The notes below the pieces were generated by a model. The model was not told the DNA's origin, did no database searches, and saw only the letters and a list, made by a program, of their open reading frames with translations. The position numbers and the translations under genes were made by a program. Shown in pieces: positions 4,261-12,544 of a DNA stretch of 64,000 nt (the stretch's first letter is position 1; every line of letters begins with the position of its first letter). This DNA is from an uncultured cyanobacterium. GTDB lineage: Bacteria; Cyanobacteriota; Cyanobacteriia; Pseudanabaenales; Pseudanabaenaceae. The stretch spans positions 544,001-608,000 of the forward strand of contig OY969811.1 of NCBI GenBank assembly GCA_963703315.1, written 5' to 3'.

Positions 4261-4497
4261 TTATGGCGCAACTTTAGAAGCGATCGCCTCAGCCATTTCT
4301 TGAGTACCCACAGTTTTTCGCACGGACTCCAATACGCGATCGGGCAAAGGTGTACCGTGAGTTGCCATCACATCTACACCAGCATCTTCAATAGTCCAAT
4401 CAATCTTTACACCCGTTGCGTCAATAACTGTTTGCGTAGCTTTTGCTACTTCAGGTCTAATGCCATCACCACGAATCAACGTAACTGAGTAAGCCAC
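4261..4497 (-). pseudogene. Isocitrate/isopropylmalate dehydrogenase family remnant with large in-frame internal deletion
   Basis: Family N-terminus (VTLIRGDGIRPEV...DAGVDVMATHGTPLP) is joined directly to the family C-terminus (VGTQEMAEAI); only 78 aa, and GDGIGPE has become GDGIRPE. Confidence 0.8.
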
Positions 4498-6581: not shown

Positions 6582-6726
6582 TACCAAAACTAAAAATGGC
6601 TACGCCATTTTTAGTTTTGAAAACCCTTACTGGGTTTTGTTTATACCAATTCACGAAAGTGTGACCACACTTTCGTGAATTGGTATAAACAACAAAGGCA
6701 ACGCATTGCGTTGCCTTTGTTATTTG
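6581..6726. repeat. Family D composite repeat with three tandem hairpins
   Basis: caaaactaaaaatggc-tac-gccatttttagttttg; ataccaattcacgaaagtgtg-ac-cacactttcgtgaattggtat; aacaaaggcaacgc-att-gcgttgcctttgtt. Related copies near 19363, 19820, 21450, 26393 and 34990. Confidence 0.85.
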
Positions 6727-6773: not shown

Positions 6774-7421
6774 CTAAAAAATACCAGATAGTTCGTAGAG
6801 ATGACGTAAAATCGCGAGAATTTTCTTGTCATAGTTAGCATCCTCCGCCCATTGCCCTGCAAGCTGACCTAATAAAGGTGCTGTTCCCCGCTTGACGAGT
6901 TTAAAGCGCGGGTCAACTAGTGGCTGGACTAAAGGCTTGGTGGTTGCATAAGCCTTTAGATGTTGAATTTGCGCTCTTACCCCAATACGGCGATCGCTAA
7001 AACTATCACCACGTACTCCATTACCGATCGCTCCAATACCCCCAAAATTATTTTGTTCTGGTTTCACATCCCCATCAAATTGCAAAAAACCTGTTTCTAA
7101 ACACATCTGACAAAAGGCGATGTCATAGTTCACATTTTCGATCGCTGCCTCCTCTCGATAGATGGTAGGCAAGTCTCCATAGATATTTAATGGTGCATTA
7201 TTGAGTTGTAATAGCCGTAATAATTGGACTTCTGAAGTAATTCCATCACCCATAATCCGATCAATTCTGCCAGTTAGGACTTGAGAACAGATTTTCTCTT
7301 TCCGCGCACTTGTGGACAAAGGTAAAAAGTCTTGAGCTTGAACAGTATTTTGGTATAGGCGATCAAAGGTAAATATAGCGATCGCACCAACTCCCATTTG
7401 AAGAAACTGCTTTCTTCTCAT
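6774..7421 (-). CDS. Glucosaminidase-domain (GH73-like) peptidoglycan hydrolase with Tat-like signal
   Basis: N-terminal RRKQFL twin-arginine motif; AFCQMCLETGFL, QNNFGGIG, GVRAQIQHLKAYA and LVDPRF. Confidence 0.8.
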   Translation of the reverse strand: MRRKQFLQMGVGAIAIFTFDRLYQNTVQAQDFLPLSTSARKEKICSQVLTGRIDRIMGDGITSEVQLLRLLQLNNAPLNIYGDLPTIYREEAAIENVNYDIAFCQMCLETGFLQFDGDVKPEQNNFGGIGAIGNGVRGDSFSDRRIGVRAQIQHLKAYATTKPLVQPLVDPRFKLVKRGTAPLLGQLAGQWAEDANYDKKILAILRHLYELSGIF

Positions 7422-7450
7422 AACTGTTTCACTTTATCTAGCTGCAAATC

Positions 7451-7621
7451 CTAATCTTTATAGACGTTAAATAAATTTTGCTGTTTCTGACAAGGGGGAT
7501 TTGACGGATATTGAGTTCTGGGGTCACTGCAACTGCGAGGGTCTTGAGAGTAGGCAGAGGCAGTACCTGCAAAGGGAATCAGCAAAGCAGATGCAGAAAT
7601 AACTGATAGCAAAAATTTCAT
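7451..7621 (-). CDS. Small secreted peptide, 56 aa (below the ORF-track cutoff)
   Basis: Manual translation MKFLLSVISASALLIPFAGTASA-YSQDPRSCSDPRTQYPSNPPCQKQQNLFNVYKD*; Sec-type signal with ASA cleavage site; AAGG upstream of the ATG. Confidence 0.65.
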   Translation of the reverse strand: MKFLLSVISASALLIPFAGTASAYSQDPRSCSDPRTQYPSNPPCQKQQNLFNVYKD

Positions 7622-7764
7622 GATGTTGACCTTTGATATAAGTGATTAAGTTAAGAATTTTTCAGGCTAAAAATATTTATATGCAATTAAGTGGGCTTTG
7701 TGCAGATTTGCACGATTTTTGAGCCATTTAGCCTAGTTTTGAGAGAAGAAAATATTGCAGAACC

Positions 7765-8145
7765 TTAACAAGCCTTTTTTTCAAGCAATCTGGGACGATC
7801 AAGCTGAACCAGAGAATTACTTTGAGATTGCCTTGTATAGAGAAGACCTGTGGAAATAGCGTCGATTAAGTCTGGATTTTGGGTTGACTCGATCGCTAAA
7901 TCTAGAAATAAGCTCTCAATTTTTTGCATTGAGGCGATGATTTGATGTCTAATTTTGATGCGTGTGGTGGCTAACCAAAAAGATTGAGACTCTGCGGCAG
8001 AGCAATCTGTCATCAATAGTGCAATCTCATCTAGCAAAGAAGTGAGGTGATGCTCATCCTCTTGCGGCTGGACTGGCTGATGTCCTAAACGCGGCTGGAA
8101 TTGATGAGCAAAAATCGGCGGTGTGGGGAAAGCATCGCTTTGCAT
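7765..8145 (-). CDS. Hypothetical protein, paralog of 8155..8580
   Basis: AGGAGG RBS next to the upstream stop codon; shares an L-xx-I...C-xxx-E-xxx-FW-x-A motif with its neighbour. Confidence 0.7.
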   Translation of the reverse strand: MQSDAFPTPPIFAHQFQPRLGHQPVQPQEDEHHLTSLLDEIALLMTDCSAAESQSFWLATTRIKIRHQIIASMQKIESLFLDLAIESTQNPDLIDAISTGLLYTRQSQSNSLVQLDRPRLLEKKAC

Positions 8146-8154
8146 AGATCCTCC

Positions 8155-8580
8155 TTATTTCTGGATTGCTAAGTGAGGATGGGCAAAAGCACTGGATGAA
8201 AATCGAGATTGGCTTGACTTGAGATCGCTTGAGCGTTCAGACAAATGGTTGGATAAATGCAGTTGAGGGTAGGTCAAGTCTGCTAATACCTCCAAAATAC
8301 GGCAAAAATCTCGATGCTTTTTGCGATCAGTCAAAAATCTCGGTACTTCCAAATATTGTGAGCGTTTTTGGACTGCTTGTCGCAGATTGGCGATCGCCGC
8401 CCAAAAATTAGACATCTCCTCATAGGTACAAGCTAATAAAAATACTTCAATGTCATGAAGCACTTGCGAAAAGCGATCGGCAATGCTCGGACGCACATTT
8501 GGATACAACGATGATGTTTTGTACGGTGGACTAGGTAATAAATTAAGGTGACGTTGGGGCAAATGATGGGGGGCGCTCAT
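8155..8580 (-). CDS. Hypothetical protein, paralog of 7765..8145
   Basis: AGAGG RBS; contains HIP1 sites; shared motif with the downstream ORF. Confidence 0.7.
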   Translation of the reverse strand: MSAPHHLPQRHLNLLPSPPYKTSSLYPNVRPSIADRFSQVLHDIEVFLLACTYEEMSNFWAAIANLRQAVQKRSQYLEVPRFLTDRKKHRDFCRILEVLADLTYPQLHLSNHLSERSSDLKSSQSRFSSSAFAHPHLAIQK

Positions 8581-9442
8581 GTTTCAATGCCTCTAATTGT
8601 GAGGATATATGAGGAAAAGTCGTTTTTTGTCATAAAACCTTGTCTTTCTCTTGCCATAAGCACTTGCCAGTGATAAAAGAAGTACATATTTCTTTAAGTG
8701 AGGGTAAGTGAGCTTAATGGCTGAGGCAAAAGGCTTAAGAGGTGAATAAATCAACTTGATGACCTTTGTTGGAAATCAGCATACGATCTAAAACTTGATT
8801 TGCACACCAGAAAAAATAGTATTTTTTGTCAGTAAATGTATGAATAAAACTAAGCAAATATTGAATGTAATATCAAATCAAATGTATAAATCTTGGAATT
8901 TAATTTAATGTCTCATTAATTTAAAAACTCATAAATTCAATTGACATTAATCTTGGTTTGAATCTTTGATAATTCTGTCAATATATTGCAAATAATTTCA
9001 AAACATTGTTTTTAATTATTTTGTTGGCAAAAACAGTGATTTATGCTTTTATTGACTGACTTGATAGATGGATTGATGATTTGTAAAGCTTTGCCAGTAA
9101 TGAATTATCAGAAAAAACAAGAAAAAATTGCTATATCAAAAAGCCAATGTCTGACTAAATCAGGATCTAGATAAAAGTTAAGAAAATCTATTGCAAATCC
9201 CCAAATATATGTTATTTATCTAACGTGAAAAAACAAGAATATGTTGATTAAGATATCCATCGCTATCGTGATTAGTCATTATTTAAGGTTGATTAGAAAG
9301 ATTGTCATTCAAACTTAAATCTCAAAACAATTTGCAATAGGTATCTACTATTTATTGCAATTGCAAAAACAAGACTAACTTGACTATTAATTAAGACAAG
9401 ACTGAGACATTTACAGAGACATTACTAAGAGGAATTAAAACC

Positions 9443-11542
9443 ATGACTATTGAAGACGCGATCGCCATCGTTGATGCTGCCCTTGAGGGCAAGCGCCTCA
9501 GCAATATTCAAGAGCAACTATTTCGCCAAACATGGGAGGGTAAGACTTACTCTGAGATTGCAGAGAGATGTGGCTACGATTCTTCCTATATTCGTGATGT
9601 GGGCTATCGTTTATGGAAAACTCTGTCCGATGGCTTTGGTGAGCGCGTCACTAAGCACAATTTACAAGTTGTGATTCGCGCTCAAGCCAAGCGATTTCAA
9701 GGTAATGGCTCGATTAATGAGATTAACCAGCCGATCGCCCATCATCCTTTAATGGCAATCACAAATCCTAATCATGCTGATGTGAGTGATATGAAGCGTT
9801 GTGATTGGGGCAATGCGATCGACACTTCGATTTTTTATGGACGAACAGAAGAACTCGCAACTGTGAAGAATTGGGTGATTGGCGATCGCTGCCGTCTGCT
9901 CGGTGTATTTGGTATGGGTGGCATTGGTAAAACTGCTTTTGCAACCAAGTTAGCAGAACAGGTGCAAGGTGAATTTACATTGATTGCTTGGCGATCGCTC
10001 CGTAATGCGCCCACAGTGGAAACGATGTTGTCAGAATTGGTCAGCTTCTTAACCAATCAAGCGATCGCCAATTTGCCACAAGACTTTGATCGGTTGCTAG
10101 TTATGTTTATGCAATGCCTGAAACAATCACGCTGCTTAATTGTGATGGACAATGTGGAATCAATCTTACGCAGTGGTGAAACGGCAGGACATTACAGTGA
10201 AGGCTATGAAGGTTATGGTGAACTATTCCGTCAGGTTGGTGAAGTGCGTCATCAAAGCTGCTTGATTTTGACCAGCCGCGAAAAGCCTAATGACGTGTTG
10301 CCTCCCGATAGTAGCGATCGCATGGTACGTTCTCTGCAATTGACTGGTTTAAAAGAAGAAGCCCGTCAAATGTTTCGTGAAGAATTGGCGATCGCTCCAG
10401 AAACTCGCAAATTAATCGACTTCTATTGTGGTAATCCCCTCGCACTAACGGTGGTATCGCGTTCCATCTACAGTATGTTCGATGGCAATGTACAAGAATT
10501 TCTCGATCAAGATGCCAATGTCTTTGGTGATATCCGCAATCTCATCGATCAGCAATATTCGCGCCTTTCTGACCTAGAGCAGCAGATTATGTATTGGCTA
10601 GCGATCGAGCGTGAACCGATCACCACCGACAATCTCCGTCAAGACATTGTGCCGATGGTTTCCAAATCGCAAATTCTGGAATCGGTGATTTCCCTGCGTT
10701 GGCGATCGCTGATTGAGAAGAATGCCAATAGCTTCACACAGCAACCTGTGGTGATGGAATATATGACTGATCGCCTCATCGACACAGCTTATAGCTCCAC
10801 TATTGATCGCAATCCCGAATTCCTCATGAGCTATGCTTTGGTGCAGCCTCGTGCCGAAGACTACATTCGTGAGACGCAGATTCGTCAAGTTGTCCAACCC
10901 CTTACCAATCGCTTGCTTGCCCACTATGGCAGTGCGGAGATTTTGCAGCGTGAATTACAGAGCTTGCTGGAAACTCTGCGCGATCGCCAAACGGCGATCG
11001 GCTATGCACAGGGCAATATCATGAATCTGCTCCGAGCTTCGCAAACCGATCTCACCAAGAAATTTTGCCGCTTTCCTGAACGAGTGACGGAGCATTCCGA
11101 TTTGCAAATTTTAGAGAGATTGTTAGAAAGCGATCGCGCTGGTGGGCTAGCCACATGGGATCATCGTATTCCTTGGGCAAACAATCCTCTCGCTCAACAA
11201 ACTTCCGAATCCAAAACCCAAATCCGCAGCAAAAATCTCTACTACCAATGGACAGAAGGTTCCCTAGAACAGTTGCACCAAGAACTCAAGCAACAGCCCA
11301 AACTTCGTAAGAAATATCATGCATGGTTAAATGAGACCGAATTTGCAGCGATCGATGCGGATTTTGAAGCTGTCAAAATCACCGATACTCTCAATCAACC
11401 CGTTGATGCGAGATTGGTATTTATCAATGAAGTCAATGTGATTGAGCCGCCTGTGGGTTTACCAACTCCAAGCGATCGCCGCAGTCAAGATCGTAAGAGA
11501 AAGCAAGAGTTGCAAGCAAATCGGGCTAAAAAGCTAGGCTAA
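9443..11542 (+). CDS. HTH + NB-ARC (STAND) NTPase with atypical C-terminal domain
   Basis: N-terminal HTH (TWEGKTYSEIAERCGY...LWKTLS); FYGRTEEL; Walker A GMGGIGKT; Walker B LIVMDNVE; LTSRE; GNPLAL; no WD40 repeats. Confidence 0.9.
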   Translation: MTIEDAIAIVDAALEGKRLSNIQEQLFRQTWEGKTYSEIAERCGYDSSYIRDVGYRLWKTLSDGFGERVTKHNLQVVIRAQAKRFQGNGSINEINQPIAHHPLMAITNPNHADVSDMKRCDWGNAIDTSIFYGRTEELATVKNWVIGDRCRLLGVFGMGGIGKTAFATKLAEQVQGEFTLIAWRSLRNAPTVETMLSELVSFLTNQAIANLPQDFDRLLVMFMQCLKQSRCLIVMDNVESILRSGETAGHYSEGYEGYGELFRQVGEVRHQSCLILTSREKPNDVLPPDSSDRMVRSLQLTGLKEEARQMFREELAIAPETRKLIDFYCGNPLALTVVSRSIYSMFDGNVQEFLDQDANVFGDIRNLIDQQYSRLSDLEQQIMYWLAIEREPITTDNLRQDIVPMVSKSQILESVISLRWRSLIEKNANSFTQQPVVMEYMTDRLIDTAYSSTIDRNPEFLMSYALVQPRAEDYIRETQIRQVVQPLTNRLLAHYGSAEILQRELQSLLETLRDRQTAIGYAQGNIMNLLRASQTDLTKKFCRFPERVTEHSDLQILERLLESDRAGGLATWDHRIPWANNPLAQQTSESKTQIRSKNLYYQWTEGSLEQLHQELKQQPKLRKKYHAWLNETEFAAIDADFEAVKITDTLNQPVDARLVFINEVNVIEPPVGLPTPSDRRSQDRKRKQELQANRAKKLG

Positions 11543-11592
11543 ACAAAATGAATAAACTCGCCGCTAGCGGCGAGTTTATTCATTTTGTTTAG
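11539..11592. repeat. Perfect 54-bp palindrome spanning the stop codons of two convergent genes (probable terminator)
   Basis: ctaaacaaaatgaataaactcgccgct|agcggcgagtttattcattttgtttag. Confidence 0.9.
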
Positions 11593-12544
11593 TCTTTGTG
11601 TTGCGCTGTAAAAGAATACTCAGATATTCCTGAGCTTCTACCCAGTTAGGTACAAGCTCAACTGCTGATTGAAAACAGGCGATCGCTTCTTCAGGCTTAC
11701 CAATATTGTTTAAGAGAATTCCAAGATTGAAATAGGGCTGAGCAAAATTAGGGTCAATCTCGATCGCTTCTTTATAAGACAAAATTGCATCTTTAAGTTG
11801 ATCGCGACGAATGAAGGTACTTCCAAGATTGCAGTGAGCATCGGCATAGGTGGGGTCAATTTGGATTGCTCGTTCAAAACAGGCGATCGCTTGATTTTCT
11901 AGAGATTCTTTTAAAGATTCTTGATCCCCATTAATGGAAGTAATTTTTTGTAAATAGGCGACACCCAAGGCATTGTAATCTTTAGCTTGGAGCAGATCCG
12001 AATTATAGTTATTTGCACGCTCATAGATCGCATTGACGGCTTCAGGATCATTCTGCTGGAAATATACCTGCGCGATCGCTCGATAAGCATCGAGATAATT
12101 AGGATCTGTAGAAATTGCCCGTTCATAACTAACTAATGCTTCTGCAATTCTGCCCCTTTCCTTAAGATTATCCCCCAATTTGCAATGATATTCTGGTAAG
12201 AAGCGATCAGGAGCTAGTTCTAAAGCTTTCTGAAAATGGGCGATCGCTAACTCACTCCATCCCATTTGTTGGTAAGCATTACCGATTCCTAATTGAGCAG
12301 CTAGAGATTGCGGATCAAGTTCAATCGCTTTACTAAAACAGGCGATCGCCTCCATGACATTGCCTTGGAGTTGATAAATTGTGCCAATGCGCTCATGGGC
12401 GGTCGCAAAATTAGGATCGATCGCTAAGGCGCGTTGGTAATTTTTAAGGGCGAGGGGGATATTGCCTGAAGGCTGATAGCGATCGCCAAATTGAATATAG
12501 GTCTCAGGCGATTCAACGGTTGATGGATTAATAACATCAGTCAT
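11576..12544 (-). CDS. Tetratricopeptide repeat protein
   Basis: About eight TPR units of the type AIACF.KAI.LDP..A.A..NLG; no catalytic domain seen. Confidence 0.92.
   Translation of the reverse strand: MTDVINPSTVESPETYIQFGDRYQPSGNIPLALKNYQRALAIDPNFATAHERIGTIYQLQGNVMEAIACFSKAIELDPQSLAAQLGIGNAYQQMGWSELAIAHFQKALELAPDRFLPEYHCKLGDNLKERGRIAEALVSYERAISTDPNYLDAYRAIAQVYFQQNDPEAVNAIYERANNYNSDLLQAKDYNALGVAYLQKITSINGDQESLKESLENQAIACFERAIQIDPTYADAHCNLGSTFIRRDQLKDAILSYKEAIEIDPNFAQPYFNLGILLNNIGKPEEAIACFQSAVELVPNWVEAQEYLSILLQRNTKTKQNE

Follow-up and report, generated by a model that had tools for sequence, protein, structure and literature searches.

The 64,000-nucleotide window analysed here (positions 544001-608000 of contig C1 of genome G000, from an uncultured member of the Pseudanabaenaceae) carries a block of five genes in which a gene for a helix-turn-helix (HTH)-NB-ARC regulator stands divergent to hypA, hypB, a gene for a secreted 56-aa peptide and a glucosaminidase gene. 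The five genes are a real block that is inherited together, and all five are under purifying selection. With a probability of about one half, we read the block as a conditionally expressed division and wall-remodelling operon of filamentous Pseudanabaenales that uses mimicry of the FtsZ tail toward ZipN/SepF, and the findings suggest an undescribed way to switch division and wall remodelling. The genome measures 4.57 Mb with 42.2% GC, and nearly all homologues that bear names come from Pseudanabaena or Pseudanabaenaceae. A literature search covering few subscription papers found no description of the module or of an FtsZ-tail decoy.

Thirty-two loci of the genus were collected, 20 picked by the NB-ARC orthologue and 12 by hypA, and two with too little flank were left out. 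Among the 30 loci counted, the NB-ARC gene is present in 29, hypA and hypB in 30 each, the peptide in 28 and the glucosaminidase in 25, the NB-ARC and hypA counts being partly due to that selection; all five stand together in 25. A synteny search had been suggested in an initial annotation of this DNA, made from the letters alone, and the co-occurrence bears out its picture of a STAND-type regulator whose gene diverges from a small operon related to the envelope. All six open reading frames (ORFs) that it listed were found at their coordinates and in their orientations, the sixth being a stand-alone TPR gene offered as a possible sensor in trans. This gene falls outside the block: it adjoins the module in 0/30 loci and its orthologues (70-78% identity) lie at least 0.86 Mb away in 5/5 genomes examined, and its role as a partner was rejected. 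An arbitrium or Rap-Phr type of system, in which a TPR receptor is linked to a secreted peptide, was likewise rejected, the TPR gene being unlinked in 30/30 loci. The flanks are scrambled, with the commonest flanking family in 5 of 20 genus loci, and those neighbours in the window that recur at all (ntcA-like, fabI-like and one small gene) do so in 1/20. The sigma factor, GHL10 and the other neighbours in the window showed no synteny and were not retained as members. Median ratios of nonsynonymous to synonymous substitution (dN/dS) are 0.08 for the hydrolase, 0.09 for the regulator, 0.13 for the peptide, 0.15 for hypB and 0.21 for hypA.

The proposed link to division comes from a short motif. 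HypA and HypB both carry (D/E)(I/L/V)P-x-F-L followed by basic residues, resembling the C-terminal peptide of FtsZ, which in this genome ends in LDIPDFLQRRRPPK. The cyanobacterial FtsZ motif, with the core IPDFL, binds ZipN/Ftn2 and membranes according to the accessible part of one report (PMC11285052), and the accessible part of another describes binding of the FtsZ tail by SepF (PMC8178401). Both ZipN and SepF are encoded in this genome. Pro80, Phe82 and Leu83 are invariant across 16 diverse HypA rows, and the motif is kept in 19/19 HypA orthologues of the genus. In HypB it is C-terminal behind a variable linker, as in FtsZ; 9 of the 18 orthologues in the genus have it among their final 22 residues. 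A 10-column position weight matrix (PWM) was built from 30 cyanobacterial FtsZ tails, and 4373 ORFs called mechanically in G000 served as the ranking background. The PWM chose the P-x-F-L site in 16/16 diverse HypA rows and in 106/108 HypA matches, and 7 of the 33 family rows in the alignment score higher than any non-FtsZ ORF of the background. The evidence is stronger in remote family members: P0199 closes with a sequence almost the same as the FtsZ tail, and the motif stands two to three times in tandem, on short linkers, in P0204, P0207 and P0209. Unlike FtsZ, the family consists of helical proteins of 90-160 aa without a tubulin domain, with the motif sometimes in two or three copies. By these comparisons, the HypA/HypB motif has the sequence characters of an FtsZ-tail-type ZipN/SepF ligand, moderately so in the window copies.

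A metagenome scan with P0209 returned no locus, and the repeat protein P0198 was dropped as it had no matched stretch. For both P0204 and the tail-bearing NB-ARC protein P0076 the longest contig is 7430 bases, which only hints at linkage. Anabaena PatA, PatD and PatU3 restrain the Z-ring via FtsZ, ZipN, SepF or ZipS during development; HypA and HypB have no family match to them, and tail mimicry is absent from their description in the accessible part of that source (PMC12288457). As a separate observation, a 405-aa unannotated coiled-coil-like protein (G000:C1:4321082-4322299, minus strand; L166:583-1800) has an FtsZ-tail-like motif at its end. Of the 4373 ORFs, just this one and FtsZ show a motif of that kind within their last 20 residues; the protein matched no family at cut-off and is possibly a second tail mimic.

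The initial annotation called HypA and HypB paralogous. The relationship is invisible to BLASTP (E=2.6) and emerges on profile comparison, which aligns a helical hairpin over 37 columns (HH probability 92%, E=6e-7); furthermore, whole-genome searches with the hypA profile return hypB as second match. The alignments identify the two as distant paralogues of an unannotated family. Neither protein matched a family at cut-off in Pfam, NCBIfam, PHROG or PADLOC, and membership of the HetP, HetZ or PatU3 families was rejected with no NCBIfam or Pfam match. Foldseek with the HypA model gave nothing at E<=0.001, and PDB sequence searches with the regulator-tail and family profiles gave no convincing match. 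The HypA model, at a predicted template modelling score (pTM) of 0.32, places helices at residues 33-50, 53-76 and 81-101.

The regulator is a STAND-type NB-ARC protein (PF00931 at 37 bits, cut-off 23.5), a P-loop NTPase with intact Walker A/B and conserved motifs, followed by helical and winged-helix domains. Fold searches of its model returned a STAND fold near NLRs and Apaf-1 and a NarL/LuxR-like HTH, and did not cover the tail. MalT/AfsR-type proteins are STAND transcription regulators with a DNA-binding domain and a TPR sensor, and activate their target promoters in dependence on a ligand and ATP. Similarly, the module regulator joins a STAND NTPase to a DNA-binding domain, and the module has candidate direct-repeat operators; in contrast, its LuxR-like HTH is N-terminal, its sensor would be PAS-like rather than TPR, and some relatives have lost the NTPase and consist of HTH and tail. 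Repeat-family searches found no WD40, TPR or LRR superstructure. The protein shares its N-terminal HTH and NB-ARC with cyanobacterial PF26355-HTH plus NB-ARC proteins of about 1200 aa that end in repeats, and residues 1-538 are 41% identical to the genome's own 1242-aa paralogue; in place of repeats it has a 130-aa PAS-like tail. This tail is a compact alpha/beta domain with a helix and three strands at 607-667. It gave no match in the Pfam PAS clan and no usable match in ESM Atlas when the window tail itself was searched. The ESM neighbours of a stand-alone tail homologue are PAS clusters (cosine 0.93-0.94, with just 120-134 shared features), and comparison of the tail with a genome PAS profile gave E=0.0047 at an HH probability of 7%. 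The tail is probably a PAS-like built-in sensor. Among the fold matches of the regulator is 7dwm (VqmA or phage VqmA), a PAS protein with a LuxR HTH. The NTPase-less relatives resemble it as HTH plus PAS-like one-component proteins, and phage-like elements carry parts of the circuit; the domain order is opposite and homology is seen in the HTH fold only.

Further proteins touch on this regulator. A 172-aa protein (G000:C1:2229723-2230241, minus strand) lacks the NTPase and shares the N-terminal HTH at 67% identity; it is a possible co-regulator or rival for the same operators. A 553-aa NB-ARC protein (G000:C1:1583238-1584899, plus strand) has another N-terminus and no repeats, with matches of 560-600 aa in many genus genomes. 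In mobile elements, stand-alone PAS-like proteins (L222:5642-6334 and L223:6198-6857) are encoded beside HTH genes and genes for a primase or replication initiator; they belong to an unnamed 112-member cyanobacterial cluster in ESM Atlas.

The initial annotation allowed for either a transcription regulator or an immune sensor. In an NLR-like anti-phage or programmed-death system, the STAND protein would sense infection, and HypA/HypB and the hydrolase would kill or detach the cell. The proposal finds support in the closeness of the fold to NLRs and Apaf-1, in a weak MLKL_N match of HypA that misses the cut-off (E=0.022), and in the copies of the peptide that prophage-like elements carry, described below. 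Several findings oppose it and favour a regulator: the N-terminal domain is a DNA-binding fold, the NTPase is dispensable in some lineages, dN/dS lies between 0.03 and 0.2, and the distribution is that of a core system, with hypA in 46/47 genus genomes and a single-copy NB-ARC orthologue, 72-89% conserved across the genus, in 24/24. Bacterial defence systems of the Avs/NACHT kind are patchily distributed and carry toxic effector domains, and PADLOC matched none of the five genes. A defence role is unlikely. VMAP ternary conflict systems link MoxR, vWA and VMAP genes, as far as the accessible part of their description goes (PMC7159879); this type was rejected, there being no MoxR or vWA match among the 15 window ORFs scanned and no conserved flank.

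The AT-rich divergent region of about 860 bp in the initial annotation was confirmed, and an alignment of 29 intergenic regions revealed conserved direct repeats in it. Before the regulator, GAGACATT occurs in one to four copies in orthologues. The GACA motif upstream of hypA precedes 3 of 3669 genome ORFs, and the conserved promoter patterns overall precede 3-4 of 3669. A similar GACA motif lies upstream of hypA in genus g20, and similar CTCAC repeats lie in the divergent gap of g25 locus L088. A sigma-70 promoter scan gave fewer sites than in shuffles. From these patterns we infer that the HTH of the regulator binds the promoter direct repeats and that the regulator controls the divergent operon. 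Mid-gap conserved non-coding islands (window 9106-9250), including a repeated AAAAACAAGA, are tied to neither promoter.

The hydrolase had been annotated as a Tat glucosaminidase. The glucosaminidase part holds, with a GH73-type PF01832 domain that keeps its Glu-containing motif. The twin-arginine leader was read by eye, in 15 of 16 orthologues, and Tat models gave nothing at E<=0.1. The protein matches NF050040 (TftA) at 4e-76 and 256 bits over model positions 278-449, below cut-off; an NF050040 equivalog exceeds 500 bits and joins amidase_3 to glucosaminidase, and the window gene has the glucosaminidase alone. Against the C-terminal domain of the canonical TftA, which lacks a leader and is encoded elsewhere in the genome, it shows 59% identity; it is a second TftA paralogue, probably exported by Tat. 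TftA of Nostoc (Npun_F3584) shares the homologous glucosaminidase domain with its Glu-containing motif, and the module hydrolases of genera g25 and g26 are full-length amidase plus glucosaminidase proteins scoring 580-618 bits with NF050040. The module copy differs in its twin-arginine-like leader, in the loss of the amidase within the genus, and in its apparent operon context; tftA in Nostoc is monocistronic according to the accessible part of its description (PMC10710843). A tree of glucosaminidase domains did not settle whether the module copies are monophyletic.

In the mature part of the peptide, residues 24-45 are 95% identical with a dN/dS of 0.05. The hydrolase occurs without the peptide in 0/30 genus loci, and the peptide without the hydrolase in 3/30. 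A search of 201 class genomes found seven extra peptide copies in six genus genomes, mostly within prophage-like elements, with five by primase/helicase or replication-initiator genes and one by a phage-type repressor; the seventh (L239) lies beside a phage-associated PAPS-reductase family gene only. Because the mature part of these copies is nearer to the genus host peptide than the host peptides of g25 and g20 are, the comparison suggests that they were captured from, or matched to, genus hosts. GenBank phages gave no match to the peptide. Separately, L242-L248 (in G062, G002, G005 and G068) are integrated elements of about 20 kb with the peptide in the early region, a repressor pair, primase/helicase, integrase and a common block of unannotated genes.

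These copies bear on the proposal that the module is a peptide-signalling circuit, in which the secreted peptide would be a cell-cell signal feeding back, directly or by uptake, on the PAS-like tail, with HypA/HypB and the hydrolase as outputs and prophage-like elements using the peptide to manipulate or listen to the host. Support comes from the strong constraint on the mature peptide, from the seven near-identical extra copies, six of them beside phage-type repressor, primase, replication-initiator or integrase genes, from stand-alone tail homologues by HTH and primase/initiator genes in such elements, and from the peptide without hydrolase in 3/30 loci and in g20. However, searching the DNA fetched for the seven peptide-bearing elements turned up no tail homologue, no peptide lies near the two stand-alone tail genes, no transporter is linked, and the absence of hydrolase without peptide in the genus fits an enzyme inhibitor or cofactor equally well. 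We consider such a circuit rather unlikely, and partly compatible with the division and wall-remodelling reading. A more novel reading, on the unlikely side, has decoys of the FtsZ tail, encoded by the host and sometimes multivalent, titrate ZipN/SepF in this multicellular bacterium and thereby pause septation or shift its position. Control would lie with an HTH-STAND-PAS switch responsive to the peptide, and resident prophage-like elements would have taken over this secreted signal as a means of steering the host's division or wall turnover.

The hypA/hypB family profile, run against 71 genomes of the order Pseudanabaenales, was positive in 56: besides G000, 46/47 of genus g1, 2/2 of g20, 1/1 of g25 and 2/2 each of g26, g27 and g28. 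It found the family in 0/14 genomes of six other genera of the order, some of them incomplete. At L088 in g25 the genes run M23 peptidase, hypA, peptide, hypB-like gene and full-length TftA-like gene, with the M23 gene upstream of hypA on the same strand and the operon divergent from a 928-aa NB-ARC protein with the same tail. In g26 (L086, L087) hypA-hypB precede a full-length TftA-like gene, and in g27 (L092) a TftA-like match follows a single 107-aa protein in which the hairpin motif occurs twice. In g20 (L225) hypA, hypB and peptide are divergent from an NB-ARC gene, and g28 (L090, L091) has the hypA/hypB pair on its own. TftA is present in 61/71 order genomes, and 10/10 genomes without TftA also lack the family; those with TftA and no family are the three g23 genomes, G043 (74% complete) and G018. 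Related genomes are not independent, and this co-distribution is a pattern rather than a test. According to the accessible part of the TftA report (PMC10710843), roughly 94% of filamentous strains and 4% of unicellular ones carry TftA. When 301 genomes drawn from the class were searched with the hypA profile, it returned 23 family genomes and one weak unrelated ORF. The latter, the G028 match, was set aside; it lies outside the order inside a 687-aa ORF (L167:2724-4787, minus strand) with a stretch resembling the family helical hairpin (E=2e-4) that may be chance.

The linkage patterns also address a rival view, in which an autoregulated HTH-NB-ARC gene and a separate operon of four genes are independent of each other and have merely inherited their adjacent positions. 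The regulator is unlinked in G061, g26 and g28, and divergent gene pairs resist rearrangement because their promoters overlap. Against this, linkage holds in 29/30 genus loci while the outer neighbours change, the divergent linkage recurs in g25 and g20, and related repeats lie at both ends of the gap; we consider independence rather improbable.

In the division and wall-remodelling reading, the HTH-NB-ARC-PAS protein would be a one-component transcription switch that senses a cytoplasmic signal via its PAS-like tail and binds the direct repeats of the shared promoter region. HypA and HypB would be small helical oligomers displaying copies of the FtsZ C-terminal-peptide-like motif, which would fill those pockets of ZipN/Ftn2 or SepF that bind the FtsZ tail. 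HypA/HypB would thereby either displace FtsZ (a division brake) or be carried to the septum as adaptors. At the same time the exported TftA paralogue would trim septal or terminal peptidoglycan, and the two-cysteine peptide exported with it would modulate it or serve as a signal. The net result would be septation paused or reshaped in concert, as in filament breakage or end-cell shaping. The FtsZ-tail-like motif, the TftA kinship, the PAS-like tail as likely sensor and the peptide copies in prophage-like elements were all missing from the initial annotation.

Several points weigh against this reading. The motif was first spotted by eye and tested afterwards; window HypA and HypB rank 69 and 152 among the 4373 ORFs, and the median PWM score of the 108 HypA matches is 3.8, compared with a 95th percentile of 4.0 for shuffles. 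Of the 18 HypB orthologues in the genus, half no longer have the motif (9/18 keep it), S100A4 holds a similar hexapeptide by chance, and the HypA motif, which is internal, may be packed against the protein's own helices in the low-pTM model. The PAS-like assignment has a weak and indirect basis, the linked NB-ARC protein of g20 lacks the tail, the tail-bearing regulator is not linked to hypA in G061, G082 and G085, and it was not found in G081 or G083. Finally, TftA hydrolysis was inconclusive even in Nostoc, in the accessible part of that work (PMC10710843). The loss from half of the HypB orthologues, the S100A4 match and the membrane binding of cyanobacterial FtsZ tail motifs (PMC11285052, same part) would also suit a P-x-F-L motif unrelated to FtsZ partners, serving as a helix cap, membrane anchor or degron, with HypA/HypB as an anti-activator or a hydrolase export chaperone. 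The tandem copies on flexible linkers, the C-terminal position with basic residues following, as in FtsZ, and the convergence of distant family members on the cyanobacterial FtsZ sequence argue the other way, and we place this alternative on the unlikely side.

The FtsZ tail is the hub that anchors the division ring, and a small-protein family copying it one to three times would be a kind of division regulator for which the literature search found no precedent. Such tail mimics would give a convenient tool for studying ZipN/SepF in cyanobacteria and, in plastids, the related ARC6. Additionally, the module bears on a point left open by the TftA paper, namely how wall hydrolysis stays confined in a filament, offers a possible non-immune role for a cyanobacterial HTH-NB-ARC protein, and includes a host secreted peptide that prophage-like elements also carry.

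Table 1. Features of the module and its borders, in window positions.
Feature	Position	Strand	Basis or remark
Glucosaminidase (GH73-type), twin-arginine-like N-terminus, paralogue of TftA C-terminal domain	6774-7421	-	ORF found; PF01832 E=1.3e-10
Secreted peptide, 56 aa: signal sequence, then two-cysteine mature part	7451-7621	-	ORF found; signal read from sequence
hypB	7765-8145	-	ORF found
Degenerate FtsZ-tail-like motif of hypB, residues 115-124	7774-7803	-	Aligns with intact motif of orthologues; PWM score 5.7
hypA	8155-8580	-	ORF found
FtsZ-tail-like motif of hypA, residues 77-88, internal	8317-8352	-	PWM rank 69/4373 ORFs; loop-Pro-helix in model
AT-rich divergent promoter region with conserved islands	8581-9442	.	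862 bp, 28.3% GC (genome 42.2%)
Candidate operator upstream of hypA: CTCA(C/T) pair 8599-8613, GACA-N5-CGACT 8618-8631	8599-8631	-	Direct repeats conserved in alignment
Second CTCAC direct repeat, candidate operator	8698-8712	-	Conserved in alignment; 26/30 loci
Tandem GAGACATT before NB-ARC ribosome-binding site, candidate autoregulatory site	9404-9423	+	Sole such tandem in genome
Regulator: N-terminal NarL/LuxR-like HTH, NB-ARC, helical region, PAS-like tail replacing WD40 repeats	9443-11542	+	ORF found
Probable PAS-like sensor tail, residues 544-670	11072-11452	+	dN/dS 0.03, most constrained part of module
30-nt inverted repeat, bidirectional terminator-like	11536-11595	.	Closes the module
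Stand-alone TPR gene, mere neighbour outside module	11576-12544	-	ORF found; next to module in 0/30 loci

The initial annotation also took HIP1 sites as a sign of long residence. They are dense in the NB-ARC and TPR genes (4.8 and 6.2 per kb; genome 1.8) and absent from hypB and the peptide gene (0 in each), and therefore say little. Outside the module, three adjacent near-perfect inverted repeats with arms of 16, 27 and 19 nt lie at window 6585-6725, between the convergent sigma-factor and glucosaminidase genes. Window 4261-4497 (minus strand) holds a 78-aa remnant of an isocitrate/isopropylmalate dehydrogenase gene, of which an intact 358-aa copy stands in the same context in G068 (L247).

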